Assembly (NCBI GenBank): GCA_964617245.1
Contig: CAZTWF010000106.1
Location: forward strand, 25,811 to 89,810
Direction of reading: 5' to 3'
Length of the DNA: 64,000 nucleotides
From: an uncultured Nitrososphaerota archaeon
GTDB taxonomy: Archaea; Thermoproteota; Methanomethylicia; Methanomethylicales; Methanomethylicaceae
The notes beneath the pieces are model-generated. The model saw only the letters and a program-made list of their open reading frames with translations, ran no database searches and had not been told where the DNA came from. Numbering within the stretch: the stretch's first letter is position 1; the number at the start of each line of letters is the position of its first letter. Positions 38,965 through 60,165 of this stretch are shown here, in pieces. A program made the translations under genes and the position numbers.

Positions 38965-39957
38965 ATGAAAGTTTACATAATGGGTATAGAATCTACAGCT
39001 CATACTTTTGGTTGTAGCATTGTAACATCTAATGGAGAAATATTATCAAATGTAAAATCTGAATATGTCCCTCCTTCTGGAGGAATACATCCAAGAGAAG
39101 CTAGTCAACATCATTCTCAAAAAGCATTATCTGTAATAAAAAAAGCTTTAGAAGAAGCAAAAATTTCTATTTATGATATAGATGGAGTAGCTATATCCTT
39201 AGGTCCAGGATTAGGTCCATGTCTTAGAACTGGTGCTACAATTGCAAGAGCTATTGCATTATTAATAAATAAACCATTAATTCCTGTAAATCATTGTGTA
39301 GCTCATATAGAAATAGGAAGATTGGTTACTAAAGAAGAAGATCCTTTAGTAGTATATGTTTCTGGTGGAAATACTATAATTTCAGCTTTTTCAGATGGTA
39401 GATATAGAGTATTTGGAGAGACTTTAGATATTGCCTTAGGAAATTGTCTTGATGTATTTGCTAGATACTTAGGATTATCTCATCCTGGTGTTCCAAAACT
39501 TGAAGCTTTAGCAGATAAAGGAAAGAATTTTATTTTCCTACCATATATAGTAAAAGGACAAGATGTTTCTTATTCTGGTTTATTAACAACAGCAATAAAA
39601 TATATTGGAAAATATGATCCATGTGATTTAAGTATGAGTTTATTAGAAACAGCTTATGGTATGTTAGCAGAAGTAACAGAAAGAGCTTTAGCTCATACAG
39701 AAAAAACCTCTTTACTTCTTACAGGAGGAGTTGCAAGAAGTTTACGTTTACAAAGAATTTTAAAATCTGTTTGTGAAGAACATTCAGCAAGATTTCATGT
39801 AGTTCCTCCTGAACTTGCTGGAGATAATGCTGCTATGATTGCTTGGACAGGATATTTAGCATATAAAGAAAATATTACCATACCAATAGAATCAAGTTTT
39901 ATAAAACAGAGATGGCGACTTGATGAGGTTGAAATTCCATGGAGAATGAAATATTAA
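38965..39957 (+). CDS. kae1: tRNA N6-adenosine threonylcarbamoyltransferase Kae1 (KEOPS)
   Basis: Kae1/TsaD ASKH-fold signature; followed by bud32. Confidence 0.92.
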   Translation: MKVYIMGIESTAHTFGCSIVTSNGEILSNVKSEYVPPSGGIHPREASQHHSQKALSVIKKALEEAKISIYDIDGVAISLGPGLGPCLRTGATIARAIALLINKPLIPVNHCVAHIEIGRLVTKEEDPLVVYVSGGNTIISAFSDGRYRVFGETLDIALGNCLDVFARYLGLSHPGVPKLEALADKGKNFIFLPYIVKGQDVSYSGLLTTAIKYIGKYDPCDLSMSLLETAYGMLAEVTERALAHTEKTSLLLTGGVARSLRLQRILKSVCEEHSARFHVVPPELAGDNAAMIAWTGYLAYKENITIPIESSFIKQRWRLDEVEIPWRMKY

Positions 39958-40586
39958 TAAAAAAAGGAGCTGAAGCTGAACTTTATAAAAGTATATGGAT
40001 GAATAGAGAGGTAGTAATAAAACGAAGAAAAAGTAAAACTTATCGAAATCCTGATTTAGATAGATATATTCGTGTACATAGAACAAGTTTAGAAGCTAGA
40101 CTCCTTTCAGATGCAAGAAAACTTGGTATTCCTACTCCAATTATATATGATGTTGATTTAAATAACACTCAAATAATTATGAGTTTTATTAAAGGTCCAC
40201 AATTAAAGAATTTAATTCCAAAAATGAGTAAAGAATGTATGAGGAAAATATTTATAGAAATAGGAAGATTAGTTGGTTTATTACATAAAGGTGGAATTGT
40301 TCATGGTGATTTAACAACTTCAAATATGTTAATACAAAATGATATGATTTTCTTTATAGATTTTGGATTAGGAGGTTATACAAAGGATATTGAAGCAAGA
40401 GGTGTAGATATCCATTTGATGCGAAGAGCTATTGAAAGTTTATATTATGAATTTTCAGAATTTGCATATGAAAGTTTTATTATTGGATATAAAGAAATAA
40501 TGTTAGATGAAGCAAATGATATATTAAAAAGAGTAATTGAAATAAGAAAAAGAGGAAGATATGTAGAAGGTGATAGGCATAAGTGA
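39939..40586 (+). CDS. bud32: KEOPS complex kinase/ATPase Bud32
   Basis: Small RIO-like kinase with HGDLTTSNM catalytic loop; adjacent to kae1. Confidence 0.88.
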   Translation: MENEILIKKGAEAELYKSIWMNREVVIKRRKSKTYRNPDLDRYIRVHRTSLEARLLSDARKLGIPTPIIYDVDLNNTQIIMSFIKGPQLKNLIPKMSKECMRKIFIEIGRLVGLLHKGGIVHGDLTTSNMLIQNDMIFFIDFGLGGYTKDIEARGVDIHLMRRAIESLYYEFSEFAYESFIIGYKEIMLDEANDILKRVIEIRKRGRYVEGDRHK

Positions 40587-41194: not shown

Positions 41195-41641
41195 TTGAAG
41201 AAAAGTAAAAGAAAAGGTAAATCACATTCAACCAGACCTATAACAACTATTTCCAAATGGGTAAAATATACTCCAGAAGAGATAGAATCTTTAGTAGTTG
41301 AACTTGCAAAAAAGGGAATACCTCCTTCTCAGATTGGTATTATTCTTAGGGATCAATATGGTATACCCTTAGTTAGGCAAATAACTGGTAAGCGGATCTG
41401 TGAAATACTAGAAGAAAGAAAATTATTACCTACCATACCAGAAGATTTACATAACTTAATAAAACGTGCTAGTAGAGCTAGAAGACATTTAGAAGAACAT
41501 CCAAAAGATATGAGCTCTAAAAGAGGTCTACAGCTCATAGAGTCTAAAATAAATAGACTTGCCAAATACTATATATCTATAGGCAGATTACCTTCTGATT
41601 GGAAATATGTACCAGAGAAAGTATCTATATTATCAAAATAA
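41195..41641 (+). CDS. rps15: 30S ribosomal protein S15 (S13e)
   Basis: S15/S13e similarity; TTG start. Confidence 0.85.
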
Positions 41642-41667: not shown

Positions 41668-43104
41668 TTGTCAGAGACTACATTACTTAATAAAATAAGT
41701 TCTGTTGTAGAGAATATTAAAAAAATACCTAAAGAAGAAAAGATATTAATTATATCTCATTATGATGCAGATGGTATTTCTTCAGGAAGTATAATTTTCC
41801 AATTATTATTTGATTTAGGATTTTTACCTCATATAAGAATAGTAACACAATTAGATCATGAAATTATAAATGAAATAAAATCTTTGAATTATGAATATAT
41901 AATATTTAGTGATATGGGGAGTGGTCAGAAATCTCTTATAAGTTCTATTGAAAGAAAAAGTATTTTTATTATAGATCATCATCAGCCAGAATCCTCTGAA
42001 TTAGAAAATGAGATAAATCCACATTATTTTGGATTTGATGGAGCAAAAGATATCTCATCTTCTGGTTTAGCATATCTTTTAGCTAAGGAAATTGATGATA
42101 AAAATATTTATTTATCACAAATTGCAATTGTTGGAGCTCTTGGAGATCTTCAAGATAGAGGAGAAAAAAACTCACTTATTGGTCTTAATGAGAAGATCTC
42201 TCAAGATGCAGAAAAAATGAACTTATTAAAGAAAAAATTAGGTTTAAGATTACATGGTTTTGAATCTAGACCAATTATACAATGTTTAGCAAATACTATA
42301 GAGCCCTATTTGCCTGGCTTAACTGGTAATGAAGGAGCTTGTCTTAAGTTTATTAAAAATCTTGGTATAGAACCAAAAAGACCAGATGGTAATTGGAAAA
42401 CATTATCTGATTTATCAAATGAAGAAATTAAATTATTAGTAAGTGGATTAATAAAATATTTAATTTCTCTTGGTTTTTCAAGTAAGGAAGCAGAAAAAAT
42501 CATAGGGACAGTTTATATATTTCCTAATGAACCGATCGATTCTCCTTTATATGATGCAAGAGAGTTTTCTTCATCTATAAATGCATGTGGTCGTATGAAT
42601 AGGTATAGTCTTGGTATTGCTATTTGCTTAGGTGATAGAAATAATGCATTAGATGAACTTAAGCAAGTTCTTCAGAATTATAAGCAAAAATTATCATATT
42701 ATATAAATTGGCTATTTTCTAGTAATAACTCTATAAAGATATTATCATATGTACAAGCAATTTTTGGAGGAGATATTGTAGATGAAAAAATGATAGCTCC
42801 TCTGATTTCTATGTTATATGGTAGTAAACCATTTTCATTAGAGAAACCAATTATAGGTTTTTCTAAATCTAAAAATTTTGTTAAGGTTTCTGCAAGAGCT
42901 ACAATAGATTTAGTAAATAAAGGTATAAACCTTGGTATTTTAATCAGAGAAGCAGCTAAAAAATGTAATGGTATAGGAGGAGGGCATAATATTGCAGCAG
43001 GCGCACAAATTCCTATAGGAAAAGAAGAAGAATTTCTTGAATATCTTAATAAATTAATAAAAGAATCTCAGGTGATTAAAACTGAAGTTAGAACTACAAA
43101 TTAA
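41668..43104 (+). CDS. DHH/DHHA1 phosphoesterase, RecJ-like (GAN/Cdc45 homolog)
   Basis: HYDADG and DHH motifs, C-terminal GGGHNIAAGAQI DHHA1 motif. Confidence 0.8.
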   Translation: MSETTLLNKISSVVENIKKIPKEEKILIISHYDADGISSGSIIFQLLFDLGFLPHIRIVTQLDHEIINEIKSLNYEYIIFSDMGSGQKSLISSIERKSIFIIDHHQPESSELENEINPHYFGFDGAKDISSSGLAYLLAKEIDDKNIYLSQIAIVGALGDLQDRGEKNSLIGLNEKISQDAEKMNLLKKKLGLRLHGFESRPIIQCLANTIEPYLPGLTGNEGACLKFIKNLGIEPKRPDGNWKTLSDLSNEEIKLLVSGLIKYLISLGFSSKEAEKIIGTVYIFPNEPIDSPLYDAREFSSSINACGRMNRYSLGIAICLGDRNNALDELKQVLQNYKQKLSYYINWLFSSNNSIKILSYVQAIFGGDIVDEKMIAPLISMLYGSKPFSLEKPIIGFSKSKNFVKVSARATIDLVNKGINLGILIREAAKKCNGIGGGHNIAAGAQIPIGKEEEFLEYLNKLIKESQVIKTEVRTTN

Positions 43105-43336
43105 AATTCCATGTGAAAATGAAAAAATAGCAAAAATAATAGAAAAATCAATAACACCAGATAATTATGAAACTCCTATTAATACTAATATACAAGTAAG
43201 TATAGAAAATTCTTTTCTATCAATAAAAATTTTCTCTACTGATGATATTCCATCATTTTTGAGAACTATAGATGATTTATTAATATGTATTTATTTAACA
43301 GAAAAAATTTTAAAAGAGTTCCCCCCAACTACTTAA
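43076..43336 (+). CDS. Pcc1-like protein (second Pcc1 paralog, possibly Pcc2), ORF lacks a canonical start codon
   Basis: +1-frame ORF overlapping RecJ stop: IKIPCENEKIAKIIEKSITPDNYETPINTNIQVSIENSFLSIKIFSTDDIPSFLRTIDDLLICIYLTEKILKEF aligns with Pcc1 fold; no in-frame ATG/GTG, and the only in-frame TTG is near the C-terminus. Confidence 0.4.
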   Translation, partial: LKLKLELQIKIPCENEKIAKIIEKSITPDNYETPINTNIQVSIENSFLSIKIFSTDDIPSFLRTIDDLLICIYLTEKILKEFPPTT

Positions 43337-43379: not shown

Positions 43380-43997
43380 ATGTCCTCTAAACAACCTACA
43401 ACAAAACTAAAAGAAAAATGGCGACAAAAGAAATGGTACACTATCATTGCACCATCTTCATTTGGAAACCTTGAAATAGGAAGAACTATTTCAGACTCTC
43501 CACAAAAACTTATTGGTAGAATAGTTGAAACTACTCTTTATGATATAACTGAATCAATTTCTCAACTTTATATTAAATTATATTTTAAAATAATAAAAGT
43601 TGAAGGTGATAAAGCTTATACAATGTTTTATGGTCATGATTTTGCTAGAGATTATTTAAGAAGTCTTGTAAGAAGAGGAACAACACGTATAGATGGTATA
43701 TTTGATATCACTTCAAAAGATGGATATAAAATGCGAATTAGTATAATTGCAATTACTGCAGCAAGAGCAAAAACATCACAAGCACATGCTATAAGAAAAA
43801 TAATGGAGGATATTGTTACAAAGAAGGATGGACAATTACTTTATGATGAGCTTGCTCAACAATTAGTATTAGGTAAAATAGCTTCAGAGATCTATAATGA
43901 GGCTAAGAAAATATATCCATTGAGGAAATTAGAAGTTAGAAAAAGTAAATTATTAGAAGCACCACAAGTATTGGTAACAACACAAGCAACAACTTAA
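43380..43997 (+). CDS. rps3ae: 30S ribosomal protein S3Ae (S1e)
   Basis: KKWYTIIAPSSF signature of S3Ae. Confidence 0.88.
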   Translation: MSSKQPTTKLKEKWRQKKWYTIIAPSSFGNLEIGRTISDSPQKLIGRIVETTLYDITESISQLYIKLYFKIIKVEGDKAYTMFYGHDFARDYLRSLVRRGTTRIDGIFDITSKDGYKMRISIIAITAARAKTSQAHAIRKIMEDIVTKKDGQLLYDELAQQLVLGKIASEIYNEAKKIYPLRKLEVRKSKLLEAPQVLVTTQATT

Positions 43998-56589: not shown

Positions 56590-57404
56590 TGACAACAAGT
56601 CCTATTCCTTATTTAAAGAAGAAACAAATTTATGAACTTGCTGAAAGTGGAAAAAGAATTGATGGTCGTGGATTAGTAGATCTTAGAAGAATTGAAATTA
56701 ATACAAATATCTTAGATAAAGCTGAAGGTTCTGCTAGTGTTAAACTAGGTGATACATATGTAATTGTAGGTATTAAATTTGAAGTCAGTGAGCCTTTTCC
56801 TGATATACCAAATGAAGGTGTATTGTCTGTAAATGCAGAATTTTTACCTTTAGCATCTCCATCTTTTGAAGCTGGACCACCTGATGAAAATGCAATAGAA
56901 TTAGCAAGAATTGTAGATAGAGCATTAAGAGGAGGTAAAGCAATTAATACACAAAAACTATGCTTAATACCTGGTAAAAAAGTATGGACAGTATGGGTTG
57001 ATATATTTATTTTTGATCATTGTGGAAATCTTATAGATGCCTCAGCTTTAGCTTCTTTATGTGCACTTATAACAGCTAAAGTTCCAAAAACAGAAATCAT
57101 TGGAAATGAAGTAAAAATATTAGATGAATATGAACCATTACCAATAAATTCTTTACCAATTATTATAACCTTAGCAAAGATTGGTGATAAACTACTTGTT
57201 GATCCCTCACTTGAAGAAGAAGAAGTTATGGATTGTAGAATAAGTATAGCTTTTGTTGAAGGAGAGGATAATCAAGAATATGTTTGTGCTATACAAAAAG
57301 GTGGAAAAGGTACATTTACTTATGAAGAAATTCTAAGAGCTATTGATATCGCTAAAGTTAAAAGCCAGGAAGTAAGAAAAATTATTCCTTGTGGTGGTAG
57401 ATAA
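56589..57404 (+). CDS. rrp42: exosome subunit Rrp42
   Basis: RNase PH-like, follows rrp41. Confidence 0.88.
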   Translation: MTTSPIPYLKKKQIYELAESGKRIDGRGLVDLRRIEINTNILDKAEGSASVKLGDTYVIVGIKFEVSEPFPDIPNEGVLSVNAEFLPLASPSFEAGPPDENAIELARIVDRALRGGKAINTQKLCLIPGKKVWTVWVDIFIFDHCGNLIDASALASLCALITAKVPKTEIIGNEVKILDEYEPLPINSLPIIITLAKIGDKLLVDPSLEEEEVMDCRISIAFVEGEDNQEYVCAIQKGGKGTFTYEEILRAIDIAKVKSQEVRKIIPCGGR

Positions 57405-57670
57405 TGGGTAAGATCACAGGTCCTGTAGGTTGTTATGGTCCAAGATATGGCTCTACTATAAGAAAGCGTATATTAGCAATAAAATTAAAAGTAAAAGGTC
57501 AAAAATGTCCTAAATGTTATTCCATAGATACACTAAGAAGAGAAGCTGCAGGAATATGGATATGTAAATCATGTGGAATTAAATTTGCAGGAGGAGCTTA
57601 CATAGCTCAAACCATAATGGGCAAGACTTTACTACCTGAGGAACTCAAAAGTATAAAAGAAAGAAAATAG
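57404..57670 (+). CDS. rpl37ae: 50S ribosomal protein L37ae
   Basis: CPKC...CKSCG zinc ribbon, GPRYGSTIRK. Confidence 0.88.
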   Translation: MGKITGPVGCYGPRYGSTIRKRILAIKLKVKGQKCPKCYSIDTLRREAAGIWICKSCGIKFAGGAYIAQTIMGKTLLPEELKSIKERK

Positions 57671-57676
57671 ATTAAT

Positions 57677-58219
57677 ATGTATATTCTTTTAACAACATCT
57701 TTAAGACCTAATCCTCGTATTAGAAATTTTTGTAAAGATCTAGCCTCAACTTCTTTGTTATTTTATTATCATACACGTGGAAAAATGAATATACTCTCAC
57801 TTTTTAATTATGCTTCTTCAATTAAAGCAAATAGAATCTGGATTGTATATTCTAGACATGGAAATCCTGGAATGATTAACTTTTTTAATGTAGATAGAAA
57901 TGAAAAAATTGGTGCAATTTTTATAAAAGGAGTAGCATTAAAGAGAGAATTAGGTACTTTATATTCAAAATCAACAAAAAATAACTCAATTAAATTAGTT
58001 CTTAAAAATGAAGAACTAAAAGAATTATGTGAGCTCATTAAATTAGCAATTTCTTCTGAAGAAATCTCTAATGAAAATATTACAAGAATTGAAATAAATA
58101 AAAATAAAGAAGGTTTTGCAGAAATTCAATTTATTGATAATAAAACAGATCTATTTTGTGGTCCAAAAATAATATTAAAAGGATATATAAAAGAAGATAA
58201 AGTTAAATTTTTTAAGTAA
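57677..58219 (+). CDS. Brix-domain ribosome biogenesis protein
   Basis: Brix/Imp4 fold similarity; conserved superoperon position. Confidence 0.7.
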   Translation: MYILLTTSLRPNPRIRNFCKDLASTSLLFYYHTRGKMNILSLFNYASSIKANRIWIVYSRHGNPGMINFFNVDRNEKIGAIFIKGVALKRELGTLYSKSTKNNSIKLVLKNEELKELCELIKLAISSEEISNENITRIEINKNKEGFAEIQFIDNKTDLFCGPKIILKGYIKEDKVKFFK

Positions 58220-58224
58220 TAATT

Positions 58225-58491
58225 ATGGAATTTCCAATAAAATCAAAACTTATAATAAATATTGATGATCCAATTGTAGCTAATAATATTTATAAAATTC
58301 TTATTCCTGAGGTTAAAACTACAAAATCTTCAAAAATATCAATAATAAAAATCAATGATAATAGTATACATCTATATATAGAAACAAAAACTATTCCTAG
58401 TTTAAGAGCTATACTTAATTCTTATTTAAGATGGATAAACTCATGTTTAGAAATATTCTCCTGGAAAGAAAAATATCTCCAAAACAAATAA
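58225..58491 (+). CDS. pcc1: KEOPS subunit Pcc1
   Basis: LRAILNSYLRWINSCLEI matches Pcc1 C-terminal helix consensus. Confidence 0.7.
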   Translation: MEFPIKSKLIINIDDPIVANNIYKILIPEVKTTKSSKISIIKINDNSIHLYIETKTIPSLRAILNSYLRWINSCLEIFSWKEKYLQNK

Positions 58492-58532: not shown

Positions 58533-58892
58533 ATGTCAAAACAAATTCCTCCTCAATTACAACATCAAATACTACGTTTACAAGAACAACAAGAACAATA
58601 TAAGGCACTTTTACTTCGTAAACAACAATTTGAAGTTGAATTAAGAGAAGTAGAAAGAGCAATTCAGGAATGTTCTAAACTATCTGATGATGCTTTAATA
58701 TATCAATCAGTTGGTAATTTACTTTTTAAAACTGAAAAAAGTAAAGTAATGAGTGAACTTAATGAAAAAAAAGAAGAACTTGAATTAAGAATAAAAACTA
58801 TAGAAAAACAAGAACAACGCTTAAGACAACAACTTGAAGAACTTAGGAGAACTATACAAGCTAGTTTATCTGGAATACCACCTAGCTCATAA
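58533..58892 (+). CDS. pfdB: prefoldin beta subunit
   Basis: Coiled-coil, Q/E-rich, prefoldin beta architecture. Confidence 0.8.
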   Translation: MSKQIPPQLQHQILRLQEQQEQYKALLLRKQQFEVELREVERAIQECSKLSDDALIYQSVGNLLFKTEKSKVMSELNEKKEELELRIKTIEKQEQRLRQQLEELRRTIQASLSGIPPSS

Positions 58893-58906: not shown

Positions 58907-59188
58907 ATGTCAAATGAAATTACTAATGTATCAAATGAAATTATTAAAGAGGCATGTAAAATTGGAGAAAAAGAAGCTTATAAGTACATTACTCTACATA
59001 TAAATCCAAAACTAATAACTTCATTTGATATTTCTGTAATTTATGAAAATAATCAATTTACTATTGATATTTATATTAATACAATAATAAAAATAGATTT
59101 AGAAAAACTATTAGATGAAGCAATTGATGCTGCATTAATTGCAATTGATAACTTTATAAGAGGTAAAATACTATGTCAGAATTATTAA
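58907..59188 (+). CDS. hypothetical protein
   Basis: 93-aa ORF between pfdB and DHH phosphoesterase. Confidence 0.4.
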   Translation: MSNEITNVSNEIIKEACKIGEKEAYKYITLHINPKLITSFDISVIYENNQFTIDIYINTIIKIDLEKLLDEAIDAALIAIDNFIRGKILCQNY

Positions 59189-60165
59189 AAATACTTGATC
59201 CCTTTAGAAATATAACAATTGTATGTCATCCTAATGCTGATATTGATAGTTTGGGATCTGCTTATGCAATATATAATTTTATTAAAAATTTTCTTAGTAA
59301 TAAAAATATAACAATTTATACTCCTGAATCAATAAGTTCTTCTTCTATTCCATTTATAGATTATCTTAATATAATGACTCATTTTGAGTTTTCATCACCT
59401 GATATATTCATACTTATAGATACTTCATCCTTAGATCAAATACCATTAGTTAAATCATATATAGAAGAAAGATCAATTCCCTACATTATTATTGATCATC
59501 ATGTTCCTGATGAACAAACTATTAGTAAGGCTATATTTTCTATTGTAAGAGAAGCTACATCTACATGTGAAATAATTTATGAAACTATAAAAGATTATAT
59601 CTCAGATAAGAAAATACTAGAAGCTTTATTAGCTGGTATTATTTATGATTCAAGACGTTTTCTTATAAATCCTAAAAAATCTATTTCACTTGCTTATGAA
59701 TTAATAAATAAAGGTGTAGATATAGAAAAGATACTTCAACTTTTATCTTTAGAACAGAATTTCTCTGAAAAAATGGCAAAGATTAAGGGATGTTCTAGAA
59801 TGAGAATATTTAAAGCCTCTTCTTGGATAATTGCCTTTACACATGTAAGTGCATTTGAAGCATCAGTTGCTCGTACTCTTATTGATATTGGAGCAGATTT
59901 AGCCTTTGTAATAAATGAATCTGAAAAAAGATTAACAGGAAGAGTTAGAGAGATATTTTATAATCAAACAGGACTTAATCTAGTTACTGATATAATAAGA
60001 CCATTAATTAAAAAATTCTCAGGTCAAGGAGGAGGTCATCCTACAGCTGCAAGTATGAATCTTAATATACTTACTGAAGATTTAATATCTGAAGTATTAG
60101 AATTAGTTGCAAATAAATTAAAAATACAAAAACATTTAATATGTGAAATTAATACTAAAAAATGA
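59173..60165 (+). CDS. DHH/DHHA1 family phosphoesterase (NrnA-like nanoRNase/pAp phosphatase)
   Basis: HPNADIDS, DHH and GGGH motifs. Confidence 0.8.
   Translation: MSELLKILDPFRNITIVCHPNADIDSLGSAYAIYNFIKNFLSNKNITIYTPESISSSSIPFIDYLNIMTHFEFSSPDIFILIDTSSLDQIPLVKSYIEERSIPYIIIDHHVPDEQTISKAIFSIVREATSTCEIIYETIKDYISDKKILEALLAGIIYDSRRFLINPKKSISLAYELINKGVDIEKILQLLSLEQNFSEKMAKIKGCSRMRIFKASSWIIAFTHVSAFEASVARTLIDIGADLAFVINESEKRLTGRVREIFYNQTGLNLVTDIIRPLIKKFSGQGGGHPTAASMNLNILTEDLISEVLELVANKLKIQKHLICEINTKK

Follow-up and report, generated by a model that had tools for sequence, protein, structure and literature searches.

Results

A Pcc1-like frame without a canonical start codon overlaps recJ/GAN

The DNA analyzed here (the window) is a 64,000-nucleotide stretch from an uncultured Nitrososphaerota archaeon (GenBank assembly GCA_964617245.1, contig CAZTWF010000106.1, positions 25,811 to 89,810 of the forward strand). 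Within it, a short open reading frame (ORF) for a Pcc1-like protein begins inside the 3' end of recJ/GAN and is the subject of this report. The frame (43076-43336, plus strand) opens after a TGA at 43073-75, and runs for 86 sense codons to a TAA stop at 43334-36. It is shifted by +1 from the frame of recJ/GAN (41668-43104), whose 3' end it overlaps by 29 nt. A sequence-only reading of the window had described this frame as holding no ATG or GTG and a single late TTG. Both the extent of the frame and its lack of usual starts were confirmed; a census found no ATG, no GTG, one TTG (codon 62, 43259), and one CTG (codon 3, 43082), along with many in-frame ATT and ATA codons. The G+C content of the window is 28.9%, and an open frame of 86 codons is estimated to arise by chance with a probability of about 1e-3 if some 8% of random codons are stops, a figure that considers base composition only. 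Homology and conservation place the frame well beyond chance.

The predicted product is Pcc2, a paralogue of Pcc1

The translated frame matched the Pfam Pcc1 profile PF09341 at 28.0 bits (E = 2.9e-6; cut-off, 20.9) and the NCBIfam profile NF011470, "KEOPS complex subunit Pcc1," at 43.1 bits (E = 4.9e-11; cut-off, 27), so that the Pcc1-profile search proposed as a check in the sequence-only reading gave significant hits. Box 2 tells the two paralogues apart: an acidic pair, D/E72-D/E73, marks Pcc2, and N72-S/T73 marks Pcc1 (Daugeron et al. 2023, PMC9889334). Box 2 of the ORF starting at 43082 carries DD (LRTIDDLL; "SFLRTIDDLLICI"), and the ORF at 58225 reads LRAILNSYLRW. DD or DE was likewise found at box 2 in most of the rows shown of an alignment of 47 RecJ-adjacent orthologues. 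A profile (A2) built from these 47 orthologue ORFs of related genomes matched the solved Pyrococcus abyssi Pcc2 (7A66, 7A67_B) at 68 bits (E = 5e-18), compared to 19.9 bits for PaPcc1 (7a67_A) and 25.5 bits for PfPcc1 (3enc). Single-sequence comparison without the profile gave E values of 0.011 to 0.046 for Pcc2 and Pcc1 alike. The 43082 ORF aligned over its full length with PaPcc2 (7a66/7a67), which supplies the alignment to archaeal Pcc2 that had also been suggested.

An AlphaFold2 model of the ORF (predicted local distance difference test [pLDDT] score, 86.2) had a beta-alpha-beta-beta-alpha arrangement, with strands at residues 3-10, 35-42, and 45-52 and helices at residues 14-24 and 56-79. 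Between beta1 and beta2, the model has one helix (14-24) followed by a loop (25-34), and this is its region of lowest confidence (mean pLDDT of 71 for residues 21-30 and 81 for residues 31-40). When the model was compared with the Protein Data Bank (PDB) by Foldseek, the top match was 7A66 Pcc2 (template modeling [TM] score, 0.79), and the top 19 matches were all Pcc1, Pcc2, or LAGE3 chains (TM, 0.72 to 0.85). The ORF at 58225-58491 matched Pcc1 chains only in the PDB search and also matched Pcc1 profiles, in keeping with its earlier description as the canonical pcc1. No similarity between the 43082 ORF and the 58225 ORF was detected by BLASTP.

The order S15-RecJ/GAN (arCOG00427)-Pcc1-S3 is a conserved archaeal neighborhood (Makarova, Koonin and Kelman 2012, PMC3307487), and the S15-recJ/GAN-pcc2-S3Ae order and co-orientation in the window match it. 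In Thermococcus kodakarensis, Pcc2 is TK1253 (PMC9889334), which adjoins GAN (TK1252). Two further KEOPS genes, kae1 and bud32, which the sequence-only reading had placed about 3 kb upstream, were verified on the same strand, 2.5 to 4 kb upstream of the ORF. Because of the DD motif, the profile and fold matches, the canonical Pcc1 alongside, and the RecJ/GAN neighborhood, the predicted gene is pcc2 in its usual place, that is, a Pcc1 paralogue and the fifth archaeal KEOPS subunit, encoded as a separate gene. The earlier suggestion that the frame might be this paralogue is thus supported by box 2, by the matches to solved Pcc2, by a separate Pcc1, and by the neighborhood. The canonical Pcc1 (58225-58491) is the presumed heterodimer partner of Pcc2.

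The junction is shared among relatives and the frame is under constraint

A single-sequence protein search returned one homologue only (P0001); most close relatives are un-annotated or truncated. Orthologues were reached through recJ: loci were fetched from 80 species representatives and 80 metagenome contigs among the matches listed, plus loci from exact-protein look-ups, and Pcc2 ORFs were found in them with a hidden Markov model (HMM) built on envelope-trimmed sequences. With this trimmed HMM, a Pcc2 ORF was located directly 3' of recJ in at least 129 of the fetched loci. The metagenome matches listed were mostly Bathyarchaeia-like loci and not the closest relatives of the window, which were obtained by the exact-protein look-ups. 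These closest relatives are "Ca. Methanomethylicota" metagenome-assembled genomes with the same architecture, whose RecJ proteins are 94% and 86 to 87% identical to that of the window.

The recJ/pcc2 junction was identical to that of the window in 13 other contigs, drawn from NCBI assemblies and JGI metagenome samples (CAGGTGATTAAAACTGAAG), and a second variant was found in 2 further contigs (CAGGTGATAAAACCTGAAA). Both variants hold AGGTGA-N6-CTG. With such a junction in 15 other contigs, an assembly or sequencing error is excluded and resequencing is unnecessary. The pcc2 frame is intact over three lineages, with the Shine-Dalgarno (SD)-like site retained, and within the window clade (versus loci L003 and L004) the ratio of nonsynonymous to synonymous substitution rates (dN/dS) was 0.20 to 0.48, with dS up to 0.49. 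In Methanosuratincola, dN/dS for CTG-CTG pairs was 0.15 to 0.28, which gives an overall range of 0.15 to 0.48 for CTG pairs, compared to 0.11 to 0.52 for ATG-ATG and TTG-TTG pairs. These ratios show the signature of purifying selection on pcc2, with the same constraint in CTG lineages as in ATG and TTG lineages, and because constraint is not relaxed, a pseudogene is unlikely.

CTG recurs at the start column of pcc2

At the column of CTG 43082, the orthologues of the species representatives have their start codon, as ATG in 16 cases, TTG in 6, and GTG in 1, and CTG is kept at this column in L001-L004 and L163-L164. A canonical start was missing from -8 to +4 codons around the start column in seven of 54 species representatives, six of which have CTG exactly at that column. 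These are L003 and L004 in the window clade and L020, L024, L025, and L029 in a Methanosuratincola-like group that includes the complete genome of "Ca. Methanosuratincola petrocarbonis" LWZ-6; wherever pcc2 of a representative overlaps recJ with no canonical start nearby, as in these six, CTG is at the column. In L020, L024, L025, and L029, no in-frame canonical start occurs upstream of the CTG, though the frame is open for 45 to 123 codons. In the seventh representative, L023, the column holds ATC, an ATG lies upstream, and recJ is followed by a spacer of 189 nt.

Many ATG and TTG lineages fall between the two CTG groups in a RecJ tree, and CTG, TTG, and ATG interchange within Methanosuratincola; LWZ-6, for example, has CTG at a CTGA overlap with recJ, and M. 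verstraetei LCB70 has TTG. The sister lineages of the window clade, L005 and L165, have TTG at the start column, and L165 also has a 23-nt overlap with recJ. A single TTG-to-CTG transition is the simplest history because these sisters carry TTG, and the window lineage most likely reached CTG in that way, by one T>C change. In nearly all lineages, pcc2 overlaps recJ, by 4, 11, 17, 23, or 29 nt.

Some other layouts were seen among the fetched loci. In L023 (4411-4917; "Ca. Methanomethylicaceae" GD_Cm_T35_P0_bin.15), pcc2 lies in the recJ frame and opens right after the recJ TGA, with an in-frame ATG 19 codons upstream, so an N-terminal extension or stop-codon readthrough is possible. L137 (3368-3380; Ga0116104_1000029) has ATC where its Bathyarchaeia-like relatives start with TTG or ATG (AGGAGA CCA AGC ATC GAA GCC GAA), possibly another non-canonical pcc2 start. 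In the Bathyarchaeia-like loci L092-L162, among the matches listed, the pcc2 start is most often TTG, two codons past the anchor column, and the recJ/pcc2 overlap is typically 17 nt and sometimes 29 or 35 nt; this shows a strong bias of pcc2 to weak start codons in those loci.

Translation of pcc2 probably begins at CTG 43082

The CTG at 43082 stands behind an SD-like element, AGGTGAT, which is presumably complementary to the 3' end of the archaeal 16S rRNA. Across the window, the 5-mer GGTGA is followed 4 to 6 nt on by a canonical start with at least 60 open codons at 21 of 89 sites (24%), compared to 3.4% for permuted 5-mers, an enrichment of about 7-fold. A start at this distance from GGTGA is thus the usual ribosome-binding layout of the genome, and the 6-nt spacing of the CTG is typical of its genes. 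No other SD-plus-CTG start was found in the window, so this arrangement appears to be specific to the gene rather than genome-wide. In most relatives inspected by eye, G-rich SD-like motifs (GGTG-, AGGGGG-, and GAGGGAG-type) precede the pcc2 start. Rfam and tRNA scans of the window returned nothing, and no rRNA lies in the window.

The sequence on either side of the CTG narrows the position of the start. In L004 and L164 a single codon separates the opening of the frame from the CTG (TGA TAA AAC CTG); TTA 43076 was rejected as a shared start because these two loci have a stop at that position, and codons 43076-43081 are probably untranslated in the pcc2 frame. Just after the CTG, the differences between the window and L004 in ORF codons 4 to 6 are synonymous only in the pcc2 frame (AAG>AAA, TTA>CTA, and CTA>TTA), and the same three substitutions change the recJ tail from VIKTEVRTTN to VIKPETRITN. 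Because these changes are synonymous in pcc2 and nonsynonymous in recJ, constraint appears to act on the pcc2 frame, beginning just after the CTG, a point that rests on three substitutions. Strand beta1 of the model spans residues 3-10, and it is this strand that forms the dimer interface of Pcc1 and of Pcc2 (PMC9889334). NCBI annotates P0001 from this same CTG.

Together, we give a probability of roughly 0.65 to the reading that pcc2 starts at CUG 43082, guided by the ribosome-binding site and probably coupled to recJ translation, to yield an 84-residue Pcc2. The product would be M/LKLELQIKIPCENEK...LRTIDDLLICIYLTEKILKEFPPTT, and peptides predicted from the CTG-initiated protein include MKLELQIK and KLELQIKIPYENEK. 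Among the options that the sequence-only reading had listed for the missing start, a non-standard start is now the best supported, with CTG 43082 lying 6 nt after AGGTGA at the column of the ATG, TTG, and GTG starts of relatives.

Several observations weigh against this reading. The conservation of AGGTGA and CTG between the window and L004 is of weak significance on its own (estimated at about 0.09 at a local divergence of 24%), and both elements lie within recJ coding sequence. In lineages with an NTGA overlap, the recJ stop fixes the TG and leaves free the first base, which is the wobble position of the last recJ Leu codon, so that a C there could reflect either near indifference to the identity of the start codon or impaired expression. 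The NCBI calls in L168 and L170 pick other non-canonical starts, both ATC, over the CTG, and the window clade has A-AAA-A 2 nt after the SD site, which resembles the geometry of the prfB +1 frameshift. A 2020 review of archaeal initiation lists AUG, GUG, and UUG only and leaves CUG unmentioned (PMC7531240), and a literature search for archaeal CUG initiation found no report. The evidence for the proposed CUG start is comparative.

In the mechanism that we propose, the SD site AGGUGAU in the recJ 3' end would be bound by newly recruited ribosomes or by those that are completing recJ. Initiator Met-tRNA would then pair with CUG despite a first-position mismatch, and the product would be Met-initiated Pcc2, 84 residues long. 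Its N-terminal beta1 strand would pair with Pcc1 (58225-58491) to give a five-subunit, non-dimerising KEOPS; in P. abyssi, five-subunit KEOPS with Pcc2 forms no dimers (PMC9889334). Coupling to recJ translation is probable, given the recJ/pcc2 overlap in nearly every lineage; such coupling of overlapping genes was demonstrated in Haloferax and Escherichia coli (Huber et al. 2019, PMC6728339). The drift of the wobble base of the last recJ Leu codon among A, T, G, and C suggests that start-codon stringency is relaxed in the NTGA lineages.

Alternative explanations for the missing start

Reinitiation coupled to recJ, which the sequence-only reading had also raised, may contribute to pcc2 translation. 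In its strict form, the identity of the codon would be nearly irrelevant: the SD site would hold ribosomes finishing recJ, which would restart at CTG or a neighboring non-canonical codon, with little de novo initiation. The overlaps of 4 to 29 nt in nearly all lineages, the free swapping of ATG, TTG, and CTG at the NTGA overlap in Methanosuratincola, and the precedents for coupling all favor such a process. However, a ribosome that finished recJ in the window clade would have to move backwards to reach the CTG, which lies 20 nt upstream of the recJ stop, and published coupling concerns 1- and 4-nt overlaps or very short gaps (PMC6728339). We regard the strict form as unlikely, and since it overlaps with initiation at CUG 43082, the same start codon would most likely be used in either case.

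A programmed +1 frameshift in the recJ tail at A-AAA-A (43077-43081) would instead produce a RecJ/GAN-Pcc2 fusion. The frame has no canonical start and is in the +1 frame; moreover, a +1 slip in the window or in L001-L003 would again pair AAA perfectly with AAA, and the SD-like element stands immediately upstream. An SD element stimulates the +1 frameshift of prfB, to which the arrangement is analogous. However, L004 and L164 have A-AAA-C, which re-pairs imperfectly, and the shift window in these loci is only one codon wide. The A-site codon is ACT or CCT, an ordinary sense codon that is neither a stop nor a rare or slow codon. The RNA at 43040-43140 folds no more stably than shuffled controls (z = 0.8), so neither a stimulatory structure nor an SD-masking hairpin was evident in that segment. 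The CTG lineages of Methanosuratincola lie in another relative frame, without a slippery site, yet share the CTG, and in every other relative pcc2 is a separate gene that has a start and an SD site of its own. The prfB-like slippery site is limited to the window and the L001-L003 lineage and is not conserved in the way expected of a programmed +1 frameshift gene. We therefore consider a frameshift improbable, and there is only a slim chance, disfavored by the evidence, that AGGTGA and A-AAA-A act to fuse the replisome nuclease RecJ/GAN, a Cdc45 homologue, to the KEOPS subunit Pcc2; were this so, the fusion would be a physical link of DNA replication or repair to KEOPS. A slip at a different position, "AAT TAA A," had been put forward in the sequence-only reading; it was rejected, since tRNA-Asn re-pairs poorly on AUU and since the synonymous changes in codons 4 to 6, upstream of that site, suggest (at few sites) that the pcc2 frame is already translated and constrained there.

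Initiation at a non-canonical codon farther downstream (ATT 43100, ATT 43106, or ATA 43127), giving an N-terminally shortened protein, is very improbable. Several ATT and ATA codons, which translation table 11 allows as starts, lie in frame, and NCBI gene calls chose ATC in a relative, but these codons are at least 24 nt from AGGTGA, with no SD site in range. Such a start would also remove some or all of beta1 (residues 3-10), the strand of the dimer interface (PMC9889334), and the three changes in codons 4 to 6 are synonymous only. Least credible of all is a start-loss pseudogene or an assembly error, which the missing start and the absent or 46-aa gene calls in IMG might suggest, but which is contradicted by the junction shared with 15 other contigs from NCBI assemblies and JGI samples, by the frame intact in three lineages at dN/dS values like those of canonical-start lineages, and by the retained SD site; the sequence-only option of a lost start, in the sense of a dead gene, is accordingly rejected by purifying selection.

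Features and gene neighborhood

The coordinates of pcc2, its proposed initiation signals, and the neighboring genes are given in Table 1. The co-directional cluster has the order kae1-bud32-ham1-S15-recJ/GAN-pcc2-S3Ae.

Table 1. Positions in the window of pcc2, its putative start signals, and associated genes
Feature	Coordinates	Strand	Basis or remark
Proposed pcc2 coding sequence	43082..43336	+	CTG start, 84 codons, TAA; Pfam and NCBIfam Pcc1 matches, PaPcc2 alignment, AlphaFold2 model, dN/dS
Proposed near-cognate initiation codon CTG	43082..43084	+	Aligned with start codon of relatives
Shine-Dalgarno-like AGGTGAT	43070..43076	+	Within recJ 3' end; AGGTGA ends 6 nt before CTG
Two open codons, TTA AAA, ahead of CTG	43076..43081	+	First position is stop TAA in L004 and L164
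recJ/GAN (Cdc45-like DHH nuclease), 478 aa	41668..43104	+	NCBIfam RecJ_archaeal, 481.5 bits; Pfam DHH, DHH_CID, DHHA1
recJ/pcc2 overlap counted from CTG, 23 nt, pcc2 in +1 frame	43082..43104	+	Sequence; also 23 nt in TTG-start L165
Ribosomal protein S15 gene	41195..41641	+	Pfam S13_N, S15
Ribosomal protein S3Ae gene	43380..43997	+	Pfam Ribosomal_S3Ae, 247 bits
kae1 (TsaD family), KEOPS catalytic subunit	38965..39957	+	Pfam TsaD, 270 bits
bud32 (RIO-type small kinase), KEOPS subunit	39939..40586	+	Pfam RIO1, Pkinase
Canonical pcc1	58225..58491	+	ATG start, NSYLRW box 2; Pcc1 profile matches

In the ORF list, three successive genes upstream of pcc2 have non-ATG starts: ham1 (GTG, 40570), S15 (TTG, 41195), and recJ (TTG, 41668). 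The S15 TTG sits 6 nt after GGTGA. Around the canonical pcc1, a second DHH/DHHA1 phosphoesterase gene (59173-60165, plus strand; Pfam DHH, 72.9 bits) lies about 700 nt downstream, with genes for prefoldin beta (58533-58892) and a DUF3194 protein (58907-59188) in between. Both Pcc paralogues are therefore near a DHH-family gene, as recJ/GAN precedes pcc2 and this second DHH gene follows pcc1. Between the ribosomal protein L37Ae gene (57404-57670) and pcc1 is a 180-aa ORF (57677-58219, plus strand) with no Pfam match at E <= 0.1.

Discussion

Annotation of pcc2 and significance of the start codon

Automated annotation handles this gene poorly. In the closest relatives of the window, the IMG annotation gives either a 46-aa C-terminal pcc2 fragment (P0154, in 17 contigs) or no gene between recJ and S3Ae; the loci concerned are L163 (3029-3169), L164 (2937-3215), and L171-L180, and the L163 and L171-L180 contigs come from hot-spring samples. 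For identical DNA of "Ca. Methanosuratincola petrocarbonis," NCBI gives 104 aa from ATC 2916 (L168) versus 82 aa from ATC 2982 (L170), the CTG at 2964 that aligns with the starts of relatives is unused by these calls, and Logan has no gene there. The missing canonical start explains these gene-finder failures, which include three different starts in NCBI, and matches the remark that some pcc2 genes escape automated annotation (Daugeron et al., PMC9889334). Missed calls of this kind would bias surveys of the presence or absence of Pcc2.

The pcc2 gene and its neighborhood were known already, and what is new is the non-canonical start. Judging from the aligned loci, CUG may be a natural initiation codon for a conserved archaeal core gene, being fixed in one clade of Methanomethylicia and interchanging with UUG and AUG in Methanosuratincola. 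Since the CTG variant occurs in the complete genome of "Ca. M. petrocarbonis" LWZ-6, an organism that we take to be in culture, the prediction of a CUG start is directly testable.

Comparison with known systems

The Pcc2 of the window shares with P. abyssi Pcc2 (7A66, 7A67) and T. kodakarensis TK1253 (PMC9889334) its subtype, the DD of box 2, a full-length alignment (68 bits with A2), the predicted beta-alpha-beta-beta-alpha fold (TM, 0.79), a gene that adjoins recJ/GAN, and a coexisting separate Pcc1. It differs in that its identity to P. abyssi Pcc2 is only about 22% and in that its gene has no ATG, GTG, or TTG start. Pcc2 has two perpendicular helices, alpha1 and alpha1', between beta1 and beta2 (PMC9889334), whereas the short alpha1' helix of PaPcc2 corresponds to the lower-confidence loop (residues 25-34) in the model of the window protein. 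The gene neighborhood agrees in order and strand with the published S15-RecJ/GAN-Pcc1-S3 arrangement (S15 at 41195, recJ at 41668, pcc at 43082, and S3Ae at 43380), although the small gene named Pcc1 in that study (PMC3307487) is the paralogue now named Pcc2, and the window has kae1, bud32, and ham1 immediately upstream on the same strand.

With regard to translation, the recJ-pcc2 pair resembles known cases of termination-reinitiation (PMC6728339) in being a co-directional overlapping pair with the SD site inside the upstream gene, and relatives have the classic NTGA 4-nt overlap; the 23-nt overlap of the window clade is longer than the cases tested, and the coupling here is inferred. As in prfB (RF2), a codon able to re-pair in the +1 frame follows an SD-like element by 2 to 3 nt, and the ORF downstream lacks its own start. 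Unlike in prfB, the A site holds neither a stop nor a slow codon, L004 has not kept the slippery sequence, and the orthologues are independent genes.

Near-cognate starts (CUG, AUU, and similar codons) are allowed in translation table 11 and are rare in bacteria. The window has the same features as prokaryotic near-cognate initiation, namely an NUG codon that follows a good SD site and stands at the position of the AUG, UUG, or GUG of orthologues. Reviews of archaeal initiation name AUG, GUG, and UUG only (PMC7531240), whereas here the putative CUG start is kept in one clade and recurs in a second, at a core gene.

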